NCBI GenBank assembly: GCA_001938485.1
Contig: MQRK01213622.1
Location: forward strand, 8,182-72,181
Direction of reading: 5' to 3'
From: Girardia tigrina
Lineage: Eukaryota
DNA length: 64,000 nt
Shown here: piece by piece, positions 1,205 to 61,057 of the stretch
Position numbering within the stretch: position 1 is the stretch's first letter
Layout: every line of letters begins with the position of its first letter
Notes under the pieces: generated by a model
The model's database searches: none
Told to the model about the DNA's origin: nothing
What the model saw: only the letters and a program-made list of their open reading frames with translations
Program-made: the position numbers and the translations under genes

Positions 1205-3528
1205 AAAGGTATCAAAAAAGAGGATTTTTAAAATAAAAACTTCATCATGACACTTAGTATTTTAATAAAAAAAATCTTTTCTGCATACCAACATTTTTAA
1301 AAACAGTTTTTTTATTGATATTATGAAAATAACGACAAAATTATTATATTCAATATTCTAAAAATTTTTATTTGTTCCTTTTTATATATAAATTATTGTA
1401 ATGCTTCTTTTTTAGAAATTTTATTTTTAAATAATTTTATTTCAATTGGATTAAATTATTTTTTTAAACGGAATAAATTATCATACAAACAGATTAAATT
1501 AAAGTAAAAACCATGTAATAAATATTATTATATTAATTATTATATTAATATTATTATATTAATTAATAATAATTAAACATTAATTAATTAAACATTTATT
1601 TGTATATAAAATTTCCGTATTAAAATTAATAATCATAAAATTTATTTTCGAAGGCGTAAATAATTTAATAGTATGTTAAAGAAGATTTTGTTGTTAGAAA
1701 TTTTGTTCGAATATTTATTTATTTTTCTGAAAATTAATATTTTCTCAAATATTGAGAAGTATTAAAAGTCGACAGACGCATCAAATTCCAAAAAAAAGTG
1801 AACAAAATATTCCGATAGACATTGTTAAAAAATAATATATAAAATTTATCATTATTTTGTGGATTTTATTTATTTAAAAAATTATTATTTTTTTTTATTT
1901 TAACTAATTTATTTTTTGACAGTTTTCAGAAAGCATGTTTACGATTCAATTAACTAAAACAAATAACTGTATAAATTAAAAAAAATTTTCATTTATTGTT
2001 TTTTATTTAAATTTTTGTTAATATTTGTATTTAAATCGAGACAAATTCTGTCAGAAGTAAAAATAAAAATGAGGTTTCGTTTCATTAAAAATCTTTTCAA
2101 AATTATAATAATAAATCAAATAAATACAGAAATCACGTAAATTAAAAATAATTTTTAATTTTATTGAAATAATTAAGGCATTAATAAAAAGACAATATAA
2201 CTGAAAAAATTGTATGCTTCTTTGCTCCTAAAATATTTTTTTCATTATATATGGATATCAATAAAAACTTTAAATCCTACAAAATAATATATATATGTAA
2301 ATAAAGGATTTTTTTATTTTCAAATTTATTCAAGAAGCAGACGCGTTTCGCCGTGACAAAAAGTGATTAACTACTATTTATATATCTGAAAACTGTTGCA
2401 TTATACGTCTCAAAAAAATTGTGTAAAAATACTTTAAAATGTTATTTCAAAACATTAATATAATTGGATGAATCAACTTGCACATTTAGCATGGTTTATG
2501 ATGTTCAATTAACAATGCTTAGACAATAATCCTCACATAATTTATGTCAAAATTATTTAACATTACTTTCAAATCTTTACTATAATCAATATAATTAACT
2601 TTACATATGTTATGGCTTAATCGAGTAGAAGCAGTTTAATTTGGAAGCATATTAAAAATGTCAAGGCAATTTTCTGTCTATAATTCTAGGTAATGTCTAT
2701 TTATGTAATCTTAGCTATGGTGCATCTTCTCGCATCAGATCCCTTTATACTCTTTTTTCAATTATGGGTGATGCATTCAACATTATCATATGCAGTTCAC
2801 GTGTCGATAATTATCGCTCGCATCTTCCGTTGCTGGGTTAAGTTTAAGTTTACGTATACGTCTTGATCTTACACTGCTTCTCGCATTTCAAGTTATTGGA
2901 AGTATTTATAGATATTTAATTAACTCATTTAGTATATGCGCACTGAAAAAATTTCACAAATCATTTGACATTTAATTTCCGTAAGGAAACTAAATATAAT
3001 TGGCTCGTATTTGTGGACTTCTTTGCTTTTTTTAATATTTCTCGTTATAATGTTATAAGCATTCGAAGTTGAAATGTTAATAATATTAATAACTAATTAC
3101 TAAAAATGTTTTTCTGAGTTTTAATTTTAATAATCGATCCGCCGATCTTTTTTAAATAATCTTTGTTAAGAGTACCGACACAATTACTATGTACCCTTTT
3201 ATTACTATTATATTATCATATTTAGAGTCATCACAACTCTCGGAAGTTCTGTCACCATTTGTCATCGTTCTAATTAGTATATTTTCTGGATTTTTAATGA
3301 TGATTATTCAAACGAATTTATTAACATTTATTATTTTTTAACATTAAAATATTTTATAAAATTATAAAAAATAGGTAATATATGTTTAATTAAAGCATTA
3401 AATATCGTATTACTTCAATTTAACGCCGCATCCGATATAATAATGCGATATTTAATAATAAACGACGCCCTCGAATAAACGCTGCATTAAAGAATACAAT
3501 TATACAATCAATCATAATTTGTAATATA

Positions 3529-4762
3529 TTAGGGTGAGTCATAAGTTGTGGGGCACTTTTATTAAAAATTAAAATGTTCATAAAACAACGCACAATAAAG
3601 ATTATGATTCGAAATAAAGTCCATTATGTTCAATACATTGTACCNNNNNNNNNNNNNNNNNNNNNNNNNNNNNNNNNNNNNNNNNNNNNNNNNNNNNNNN
3701 NNNNNNNNNNNNNNNNNNNNNNNNNNNNNNNNNNNNNNNNNNNNNNNNNNNNNNNNNNNNNNNNNNNNNNNNNNNNNNNNNNNNNNNNNNNNNNNNNNNN
3801 NNNNNNNNNNNNNNNNNNNNNNNNNNNNNNNNNNNNNNNNNNNNNNNNNNNNNNNNNNNNNNNNNNNNNNNNNNNNNNNNNNNNNNNNNNNNNNNNNNNN
3901 NNNNNNNNNNNNNNNNNNNNNNNNNNNNNNNNNNNNNNNNNNNNNNNNNNNNNNNNNNNNNNNNNNNNNNNNNNNNNNNNNNNNNNNNNNNNNNNNNNNN
4001 NNNNNNNNNNNNNNNNNNNNNNNNNNNNNNNNNNNNNNNNNNNNNNNNNNNNNNNNNNNNNNNNNNNNNNNNNNNNNNNNNNNNNNNNNNNNNNNNNNNN
4101 NNNNNNNNNNNNNNNNNNNNNNNNNNNNNNNNNNNNNNNNNNNNNNNNNNNNNNNNNNNNNNNNNNNNNNNNNNNNNNNNNNNNNNNNNNNNNNNNNNNN
4201 NNNNNNNNNNNNNNNNNNNNNNNNNNNNNNNNNNNNNNNNNNNNNNNNNNNNNNNNNNNNNNNNNNNNNNNNNNNNNNNNNNNNNNNNNNNNNNNNNNNN
4301 NNNNNNNNNNNNNNNNNNNNNNNNNNNNNNNNNNNNNNNNNNNNNNNNNNNNNNNNNNNNNNNNNNNNNNNNNNNNNNNNNNNNNNNNNNNNNNNNNNNN
4401 NNNNNNNNNNNNNNNNNNNNNNNNNNNNNNNNNNNNNNNNNNNNNNNNNNNNNNNNNNNNNNNNNNNNNNNNNNNNNNNNNNNNNNNNNNNNNNNNNNNN
4501 NNNNNNNNNNNNNNNNNNNNNNNNNNNNNNNNNNNNNNNNNNNNNNNNNNNNNNNNNNNNNNNNNNNNNNNNNNNNNNNNNNNNNNNNNNNNNNNNNNNN
4601 NNNNATGAACATAAAATCATGATTTTCTTACAAATACTGAAACTTCAGTTTATGAGCTTTATTACGATATACAAATTCAATTAATATCTATTCGACAATT
4701 CATGTTGTAATTAAAGATAATTATTTTGGAAAGAGTGCCCCACAACTTATGACTCACCCTAA
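3529..4762. mobile_element. Tc1/mariner element (~1.23 kb), interior in N-gap
   Basis: Perfect ~29-bp TIRs TTAGGGTGAGTCATAAGTTGTGGGGCACT flanked by TA. Confidence 0.9.
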
Positions 4763-58652: not shown

Positions 58653-60357
58653 TAACATTATTACTAAAAAAAATTATCATTTTTGCGGTGAATTAAAAAT
58701 AATGAATGTTTAGTGAACTTGTTTTACATATTTTCATTCACCTAAAATATTTTTACTTAGACGTTTGTCTTTCCAATGTCTCTAAAGTTGTCTTATCTCA
58801 GACTGCTGGGTCGACATAGTTACGCAAACAATGGTTAGAATGTAATGGCTATTCTCTGGGGTAAATGCTTCAGAATAAAATTAGTCTTCTTATCCTATGT
58901 AGGAATGTTGCTTTCAATTAAAATAGGAGAAAATAGAAATTTGTTGAAATGTATTCTCATTAATTAATAACCTTATTATTTATACTTCGATATTATTACT
59001 ACTATGTAATAATTTATTCCTGGTATCTGAAATATGATTACTATTATCATTAATACCATTAATAATTAATAATAATTTGTAAATATCGTACGTTGAAATG
59101 TTTAATTTAATTTTTAGGTGAGTTTTTTATATTATTCAGTATTGAAAATAATTGAATAAATTATATATTTTATAGCTCAATTAAATACATTTTTATCAAC
59201 TTATTTTATCGTTTATCAAATGGAGCTACTATTTAGCATATTTTTAAAATTAATTTAAATGAATCAAATCAACTCTAATTTAAAGGTACTGAGATTAGAC
59301 CTTCATTCTCCCTAGATGTGCAAGGGTAGTCTCAGGCAATCCAAGTAATTTTCGACCCGCTAGAAGTTTCTTAAAGCTATTTTTACTGAACATTGTTTTT
59401 TAATATAAAATAAAATAAATTTGTTTAATGTTTGATTAATCCTTACAGATGTTTGAATATTAATATATTAATAATGACAATTTGTATCTTGACGACAGAC
59501 CACGTCTTGGATGTCCAAAACCTTGGACGAAGGTAGCATACTAAAAATTTGATTTTGTGTCATGATCAATCTTTCACGAATTGGCTAAAAAATTCGCTAT
59601 TCATCAGAAAACAATCTTCATAAAAGCTAAAGCCAAAGTCAAAAAATGAATTTTGGCCTCAATGAAAGGTTGCCATCCGACTAGGTGTTGGTCAAACTTG
59701 TCGACTCCTTCCAAAGTAAAGACAACTGAGATTTTTGTTAATTGAGAATCCAAAAGAATCTTGCATGTCGAAATAATTTCATCAATATCAAGTCTTTCTA
59801 TGAGCAACTTCTTTAGTCTAACATACGCTGATTTTTCATGTTCAGTCTTATTAATGGTAAACTATAATATATAATATATAATATAGTATGCGTAATTTAT
59901 AATATATAATATATTTCATATGTTTATATATTAATATATATTTATACGAAAAAAATAAATTTATATTTATAAGAATACTTGTTCTCGATATTTTGTTTTG
60001 TAAAATAACATTGTAACTTAATATTGTAAATATTGTTTGTTTAGGTTTGGCCACCGATTGACTTGCTTTAAAAAAATAAATAATTCAGTCATTCAATAAT
60101 GAAAAATTTAACTAAAATATAATTTCACATAACTTAATATAAATCGAAATTTTTCTATTTGAAATTACTAATTAACCGAACATTTCGTTACATTTTTTTC
60201 GCTTTAAATTTCAAAGGGTAATTTGTAAAATTGAAACAAATTCTTTTCATAATTAATTTAATTGGAGAAATAAAAAAATAACGTTATATTTTTTAGATAT
60301 TTTTAATTATAATTACACTCATATTTTATCAGAAAAAAATATTTTAATTATTATCAT

Positions 60358-61057
60358 TATTAAGAACACCAATATGGGTTTTCACACTGTGAGAGGTAGT
60401 TGCAACATCCGAATTCATTTTTTTAACACCAAACTTTATTTTTAAAATATTGAATAAGCATATTAACATTAAAATATTTTACCTTTTAAAAAAATAATAA
60501 ATTATTCTGGCGAGATAAAAATTTAAATTAACCCCTCATACACACTTTTATTTTCATTACAATCAGAATTGTCTTTTGGAAAACTCTCAGTGAAACTTTC
60601 AGAATTTGATAATTTGATAATTTTTTTGTTAATGTTTGTTAATAAATAATTATTCGAACAAATTTTCATTTTAAATGATTTTCAGATTTTATTTTTAAAA
60701 ATTCTACTTTTATAATTTGGTAATAATTTTATCTAAATATTAATTTAATTTTTAAAAATGATTTTATTTAAAGAAAAACATTAATTCAATTAATTTAAAA
60801 ATAAATTAAAAGTTATTTACTTTATTAAAATTTTTAATATAAAAAGTTTAAATGACTTAATATTTTAAAAGTTTTTATTATTTTAGGTTGTAATTTAAAA
60901 TCCATCAACAGTAATTTAAAATGCAAACTATGCTCGAATAAATATTCATCGCGAACATTCAACATACCGATTTTCCATCTGGGTGGAAGAAACACATGTC
61001 CAAATACTAAACTCAATATACAAAATTCAACATACCAAATTTAAAATATTACTCACA
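60358..61057 (-). mobile_element. Solo-LTR-like unit (family X) with a nested 153-bp insert
   Basis: Minus start TGTGAGTAATATTTT, motif TCCACCCAGATGG, TSD ATCAT/GTCAT. Confidence 0.75.
60388..60540. mobile_element. 153-bp mini solo-LTR-like insert
   Basis: TGTGAGAGG...CCCCTCATA inverted ends, perfect TSD CACAC. Confidence 0.65.

Follow-up and report, generated by a model that had tools for sequence, protein, structure and literature searches.

Ten units sharing one short sequence motif (U1 to U10, the last newly added here) and one partial unit (P1) are spread over the window, a 64-kb stretch of contig MQRK01213622.1. Taken together, the evidence makes it highly probable that these units are solo long terminal repeats (LTRs) from related compact Gypsy families, that the start of gag lies within the LTR, and that the motif is likely the elements' promoter signal. 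For U2, comparison at the level of predicted protein shows a solo LTR that closes with the opening 26 codons of a Ty3/Gypsy gag, of which intact copies exist in other assemblies. The other units are likely solo LTRs of sister families in the same compact Gypsy clade. An initial annotation had singled out the units as the window's best candidate for an undescribed system. That assessment is not upheld: the candidate resolves into ordinary solo LTRs, and the biology is ordinary, with some unusual LTR anatomy. The coordinates of U1-U9 and P1 confirm that the units lie where that annotation had placed them. Their extents needed revision, as U9 (700 bp) is longer than had been claimed and the 3′ end of U7 lies at 30297. 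The units, with their target-site duplications (TSDs), are as follows.

7590..7821, minus strand: 5′ part of U1; first two bases missing; motif at 7750-7774; inner boundary approximate
3164..3400, minus strand: 3′ part of U1; frameshifted coding end; TSD pairs perfectly with that of the 5′ part; approximate inner boundary
11362..11810, plus strand: U2, solo LTR of 449 bp; perfect 5-bp TSD; sits three bases inside the start of U3; Gag match
11732..11810, plus strand: 5′ end of gag within U2, from its start codon on; 26 codons plus a single base; AATAAA 37 nt before the end
11413..11437, plus strand: shared motif of U2; 4 substitutions, E-box intact
11813..12253, plus strand: U3, solo LTR of 441 bp; TSD not found; motif at 11872-11896; final 32 codons open
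23323..23610, plus strand: P1, 5′-truncated LTR; 78-79% like U3; final 34 codons open
24386..24908, minus strand: U4, solo LTR of 523 bp; TSD 4/5; motif at 24808-24832; final 42 codons open
26588..26886, plus strand: U5, LTR interrupted by a pogo-type element; motif at 26633-26657; 3′ end not found
29807..30260, minus strand: U6, solo LTR of 454 bp; TSD 4/5; terminal inverted repeat 8/9; motif at 30166-30190; final 35 codons open
30297..35076, minus strand: U7, fragmented LTR belonging to the U2 subfamily; pieces at 35076-35044, 30923-30857 (motif ~30874-30898) and 3′ end 30378-30297
36640..37132, plus strand: U10, additional 5′-truncated unit; motif at 36673-36697; boundaries approximate
45354..45635, plus strand: U8, LTR interrupted by a mariner element; motif at 45412-45435; 3′ end not found
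60358..61057, minus strand: U9, solo LTR of 700 bp; TSD 4/5; motif at 60975-60999; AT-rich sequence interrupts the coding end

Coding 3′ ends and their Gag relatives

The initial annotation was mistaken in describing the units as non-coding, as their last 80-100 nt are coding. In all seven units counted (U2, U3, U4, U6, U7, U9 and P1), the final 25 codons are stop-free in one phase, with one base left over at the end. Such stop-free ends were not equalled in any of 20,000 shuffles, and T occupies 69% of third positions. U1 was excluded from this count owing to its frameshift; the gag frame is broken in both U1 and U9. A profile built from nine unit 3′-end peptides returned a single protein match, P0323 (376 aa), with a weak profile score (E=0.41). 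Direct comparison of the U2 end with residues 1-26 of P0323 gives 24 identities in 26 positions (E=6e-15), and the U2 peptide is identical at 26/26 positions to the N-terminus of P0333. The P0323 cluster has 11 members, six of which were compared with U2 and are identical to it at 23-26 of 26 or 40-41 of 48 residues. The longer matches, 40-41/48, are those of P0330 and P0331, which are called from an upstream start and reach further into the LTR.

The cluster also indicates what follows the LTR. All seven members with a U2-type N-terminus go on as M-A-T-T-A-H, which corresponds to the last LTR base followed by the primer-binding site (PBS) of a decayed Gypsy element nested in U7; among spacers of 0-3 nt, only a spacer of 0 fits. 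P0323 itself carries a zinc knuckle (E=3e-8) of the CCHC type and has Gag-like neighbours in the Atlas. It aligns with the clade Gag alignment (relatives of the nested Gypsy's Gag) over 241 columns (probability 98.6, E=1.4e-15). By these sequence criteria, P0323 is a Gag and shares homology with those of a compact Ty3/Gypsy clade that has no name. A T-G-D/E string occurs within 40 residues of the start in 14 of the 23 best Gag relatives, two multi-knuckle matches being omitted; the PBS is therefore read as protein clade-wide. The first gag search retrieved the nested family only, and the unit-peptide profile had no match among the Gag N-termini of the nested subgroup.

The same fusion bears on the proposal that some units are self-mobile, as non-autonomous single-LTR elements or elements like terminal-repeat retrotransposons in miniature (TRIMs), a reading that we regard as extremely improbable. 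It draws on the absence of a cognate gag from the window, the head-to-tail arrangement of U2 and U3, and the missing TSD of U3. For the U2 family it is contradicted, since in near-identical relatives, seven database proteins, the LTR end continues in frame into a complete gag. A TRIM has two short LTRs, a PBS and a polypurine tract but no coding region; the units are single repeats, no PBS or polypurine tract was found beside any of them, and the coding end of U2 is tied to a full gag. Moreover, the U2-U3 pair represents an insertion of U2 into the start of U3, because the TSD of U2 overlaps that start.

LTR anatomy and the compact Gypsy clade

The solo-LTR assignment is consistent with the TSDs of the units. 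Seven units have both ends, and their TSDs are perfect in U1 and U2, match at 4/5 positions in U4, U6 and U9 and at 3/5 in U7, and are absent in U3. A match of at least 4/5 in five of seven units has a chance probability of 7e-7, with ends chosen by eye. The earlier count of five units with 5-bp TSDs thus stands at this threshold, with only two of them perfect. Six of the seven start with TG (U2 has CG, and the start of U1 is shortened), and their terminal inverted repeats match at 3-8 of 9 positions. Taken alone, the start decamer is only weakly enriched in the window (22 occurrences versus 12.8 expected). The described composition, a G/T-rich first ~80 nt followed by an AT-rich middle, was borne out in the four units measured, where G+T amounts to 0.66-0.78 over the first 80 nt and the middle has a G+C of 0.07-0.16. 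AATAA(A/G) lies 37 nt before the end in three of four units measured, and AATAAA with a G/T-rich tail was found. The position at which TA ends depart from CA falls on the third base in an Asn codon. A DNA transposon or miniature inverted-repeat transposable element (MITE) identity was dismissed, as long terminal inverted repeats are missing.

Most pairs of units had been said to barely align. This needs qualification: U2/U7, U2/30439-30627, U3/P1, U5/U6, U3/U6 and U1/U4 align at 65-81% over 60-280 nt, and subfamilies therefore exist. The 30439-30627 segment is a U2-like middle of U7 on the opposite strand, which reflects either inversion or the presence of another copy that begins at 30380. 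U1 (7821-3164, minus strand) is divided by pogo-type DNA. Two LTR-element insertions fall within the first 35 bases of another unit (11362-11816, U2 into U3; 35044, the nested Gypsy into U7) and may hint at a target preference. U7 also contains a MITE-like insert of ~190 bp with short G-rich inverted ends (30660-30856). A 120-nt direct repeat, 74% identical, lies on both sides of U10 (36493-36611 and 37120-37240).

Two Gypsy elements in the window, both of the compact clade, are as follows.

383..1204, plus strand: G0, Gypsy of the same clade (larger subgroup); integrase end, polypurine tract, 3′ LTR at 939-1204
30924..35043, minus strand: nested decayed Gypsy of the same clade, other subgroup; ~100-bp LTRs, PBS at 34943, 5-bp TSD; without the motif

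The claim that the window holds no cognate internal region was correct in that no cognate gag was found in the window; it overlooked the 3′ LTR of G0, which follows an integrase end and polypurine tract. The G0 LTR has the same first eight bases as the units and, over the last 60 nt, an open frame that begins with ATG, and the motif is missing from its sense strand. In the nested Gypsy, gag starts inside the element's own 5′ LTR and reads through the PBS. The PBS may be of the tRNA-Arg type found in the 412/mdg1 group. Its ~100-bp LTRs have AGT..ACT-type ends, unlike those of the TG-ended subgroup. An intact Pol (P0003, 92% identical to that of the nested Gypsy) and an intact Gag (P0172) are present in public assemblies. 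A third Gypsy, G3 (54501-53960, minus strand), has an integrase 75% like P0031/P0039 and a long AT-rich 3′ LTR with an approximate 3′ end; a separate solo-like G3 copy lies at 18481-17700 (minus strand, 84-89% identity).

The reverse transcriptase (RT) of the nested element retrieves 47 compact Pol clusters (P0003-P0049; 44-92% identity), none of which carries a family name (0/47). In a quick tree of 61 rows, the 48 clade RT rows, including the query, form one side of a branch with an SH-aLRT value of 97. Both the clade and the nested element show the Pol order protease, RT, RNase H, integrase (PR-RT-RH-IN) and a Ty3-like RT, and among solved structures it is Ty3 Gag-Pol that a clade Pol matches best (E=3e-100). 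The larger subgroup comprises 39 clade Pols, 30 of which have a readable C-terminus. Fifteen of these 30 pass through the polypurine-tract glycines into C-E or C-K, three end in V-R and two in M-stop, both of them readings of these bases in a different frame, and ten end otherwise. The first codons of the units read C-E-E, C-K-E or C-E in five of eight unit starts.

These observations allow a proposal for the parent elements. The parent pol would read through the polypurine tract into the first codons of the LTR, as is seen in clade Pols; its assignment to these LTRs is inferred. Within the LTR, a left integrase-binding end would be followed by the G/T-rich stretch, the motif and the AT-rich middle. 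Gag would begin ~80 nt short of the LTR end and have the AATAAA signal among its codons. The LTR would directly abut the PBS with zero spacer, so that the PBS is read as Gag residues, which fits the U2 cluster. Integration would generate 5-bp duplications, and LTR-LTR recombination, by which solo LTRs are described to arise (PMC10512236, PMC4558846), would then excise gag-pol, so that a single LTR carrying a stranded start of gag stays behind. Between families the motif would have been maintained through selection acting on the mobile elements, as a transcription-factor or core-promoter site, with decay in each copy after insertion.

The shared motif and competing explanations

The initial annotation correctly recognized a shared motif. 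With up to 4 substitutions allowed, the full motif has 9 matches in the window, as compared with a mean of 0.27 and a maximum of 1 in 30 shuffles. At most 4 substitutions separate eight of the ten units from the motif, compared with 5 in U10 and 7 in U7. A 12-nt core with up to 2 mismatches gives 10 matches versus 1.05 expected, 7 of them inside units, and a similar pattern occurs at 39159-39183, outside any unit. Over 28 pairs from eight units (U7 and U10 omitted), core identity is 0.72 versus 0.27 when shuffled. For the same pairs the flanks are near shuffle level, at 0.56 versus 0.52 for the G/T-rich stretch and 0.60 versus 0.56 for the downstream AT-rich sequence. The motif lies 60-100 nt from the unit start and consists of a pyrimidine-rich spacer, a CACCC box and a CAGATG E-box, making it C-rich in an AT-rich genome. 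The E-box had been said to be usually present; it is intact in only 5 of 10 units.

Several findings weigh against the assignment of all units to such families and of the motif to their promoters. The direct Gag link exists for U2 only: U3, U7 and P1 match the same Gags weakly (E 0.002-0.36), and the ends of U1, U4, U5, U6, U8, U9 and U10 have no useful match to them. Loci of clade Pol or P0323 were searched for and none was found, and no single molecule was found that combines a pair of LTRs, the bases of the PBS and the motif with gag-pol. No Pol tied to P0323 was found, and a −1 frameshift between the P0323 end and a Pol start gave no signal above background. U3 lacks a TSD, and five of the seven two-ended units end in TA, with the canonical CA in two. 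Conservation of the motif is partly ascertained, because the motif helped to define the units. None of the three LTR types linked to pol in the window (those of G0, G3 and the nested Gypsy) contains the motif either; the motif therefore characterizes a sub-lineage rather than the clade as a whole.

Within the solo-LTR reading, a promoter or transcription-factor site is the role that we somewhat favour for the motif. This suggestion follows from its position near the left end and upstream of the gag start, its C-rich composition with a putative E-box and CACCC box, and the absence of a conserved fold. Continuation of Pol into the motif was considered and dismissed, as the offset from the unit start varies in all three phases. 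Scans of outside sequence for the motif pattern returned chance matches only, in phage and bacterial DNA (2 viral, 1 metagenome).

An RNA-processing signal is an unlikely alternative. In this reading the units are still solo LTRs, and the motif is a pyrimidine tract and CAG that form a splice or trans-splice acceptor, followed by ATG, with the CAG paired with GT at LTR base 2 or with a spliced leader. A CAG stands behind a pyrimidine-rich stretch in 8 of 10 units, with its three columns kept in 10, 9 and 9 of 10, and most units start T-GTGAG/GTAAG. That GTGA/GTAA start is already accounted for by the integrase end and the Pol tail. The ATG that follows opens a 10-codon frame in each of U3, U4 and U9, but it is present in only 5 of 10 units and its frames share no common peptide. 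The bases behind CAG are also kept (7-8/10), and at a second donor site, 11 nt downstream, GT stands in only 4 of 10 units, the young copy U2 not being among them. An extended version, in which an undescribed Gypsy lineage of aquatic animals has LTRs that code at both ends, with the Pol tail in the first codons, the start of Gag and the poly(A) signal in the last 80-100 nt and a PBS read as protein, and a conserved pyrimidine-CAG-ATG cassette that serves as a splice or spliced-leader acceptor controlling the RNA, strikes us as a little more doubtful still.

Ty3 has a bipartite primer site. The motif could similarly be a replication signal near the RNA 3′ end, for instance by adding to the pairing with the primer tRNA or by acting in strand transfer. 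Its location 60-100 nt behind the polypurine tract and its retention between families would suit such a role. The consensus structure of the 5′ alignment has 0 pairs, however, and the nested element shares the start of the PBS yet lacks the motif. We consider this role improbable.

The initial annotation had also proposed, as one option, solo LTRs of many related lineages under selection to retain a host transcription-factor site. The first part stands, as established for U2 and inferred for the others; host selection is unsupported. Retention of the motif by the host as a dispersed cis-regulatory module is very unlikely. The units are dense (14 pieces cover 4842 of 60304 called bases), and solo LTRs can serve as promoters in other systems, as reported for tapeworms (PMC4558846). 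However, no host protein family was found among the 131 window open reading frames (ORFs) scanned against Pfam. Intact E-boxes number 5 of 10 versus ~7 expected from TSD-based decay (p=0.14, small samples), and at 25 of 120 core positions the base is not the prevailing one of its column, so that motif decay after insertion gives no sign of host selection in this small sample. Several units are interrupted by other transposons. Since an intact Gag carries exactly the U2 peptide, the distances between units reflect divergence between families rather than long residence in the host, and the motif would thus have been kept while the elements were mobile.

A microsporidian host, in which the motif would be a CCC-type core promoter before ATG, is likewise very improbable. 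A CCC-like motif just upstream of start codons is described in PMC2803860, and in some units the core CCC lies two bases ahead of an ATG. That ATG is not the gag start, and inspection by eye showed no CCC ahead of four start codons in transposons (27180, 34978, 46159 and 46604). The microsporidian Gypsy elements described in PMC4202319 encode one polyprotein, as opposed to the separate gag here, and no long host ORF is present in the 64 kb.

Relation to known elements and setting of the window

As far as the cited description of Ty3/Gypsy (Metaviridae) elements goes (PMC3601003), their solo LTRs share with the units AATAAA close to the end, a G/T-rich tail and a 5-bp TSD, as well as a parental PBS and polypurine tract and a CCHC Gag, and in part the start with TG and the short inverted repeat at the termini. 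The units differ in the frequent TA end, the AATAAA within gag codons, the entry of pol into the 3′ LTR and the cross-family motif. Placement of gag within an LTR has a parallel in Ty1 of Saccharomyces cerevisiae, where, according to PMC10512236, GAG starts inside the 5′ LTR, 40 bp before its end, and solo LTRs keep the gag start. Ty1 belongs to Ty1/Copia, and its POL is reported there to stop 25 bp before the 3′ LTR, whereas the Pol tails of the units' clade enter the LTR; the LTR-coded part of Gag is about twice as long in U2 (26 codons). TGTA termini, with the TA end of five of the seven two-ended units, are a non-canonical LTR type listed by the authors of LTR_retriever (10.1101/137141). 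The TG..TA LTRs of that account are from plants and 89% Copia, whereas the units are Gypsy, likely from an animal host, with CA and TA mixed among families.

The ta-TRIM elements of tapeworms resemble the units in forming dispersed solo LTRs with TSDs, some of which act as promoters according to PMC4558846. TRIMs are characterized there as non-autonomous and non-coding, unlike the U2 family with its full gag. Microsporidian Ty3/Gypsy elements are also compact in the account of PMC4202319, and their single polyprotein contrasts with the separate gag and the 440-700 bp LTRs found here.

The coding 3′ end offers a practical handle, as the stranded Gag peptide can link an orphan LTR to its parent family by protein search, without the genome being needed. 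In the clade, represented by 47 unnamed Pol clusters in public assemblies, gag, pol, the PBS and the poly(A) signal would all overlap the LTRs, and the shared motif is a defined candidate promoter element. Larger significance would follow only if the motif were an RNA-processing switch or host-co-opted. Our search of the open literature (planarian solo LTRs, gag inside a Gypsy LTR, Gypsy-LTR E-box, the PBS string and trans-splicing; main texts) found no description of the clade or the motif.

The window is AT-rich and includes 3696 N among its 64 kb. All Pfam matches above the E=0.001 level among the 131 scanned ORFs are transposon domains (Gypsy RT, RNase H, integrase, pogo, mariner, MULE and GIY-YIG), and no host gene was found in the window. 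A second scan covered 119 of 183 listed ORFs, with those of already identified transposons omitted. The window has 0 Rfam matches and no tRNA matches. Its set of transposons suggests an AT-rich animal as host. Two DNA sequencing runs of one organism contain 0.64 and 0.53 of window positions 22000-31000; no RNA run was listed as containing them, which says nothing about expression.

Other repeats are also present. A GIY-YIG fragment at 21394-21591 (minus strand, E=6e-4) is likely a decayed Penelope-like element, and nested inverted repeats of 92 and 106 nt (96%) at 51190-52717 are likely the ends of a MITE or non-autonomous DNA transposon. A decayed transposase-like region at 55900-56900 (minus strand) has a Cys-rich tail and no Pfam match; it may be piggyBac-like. 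A G/T-rich stretch at 20560-20800 (minus strand) has a composition like that of the units' 5′ part, without their start or motif. A near-identical duplication (15452-15730 / 15957-16110) surrounds a gap and a TA run and is possibly an assembly artefact.

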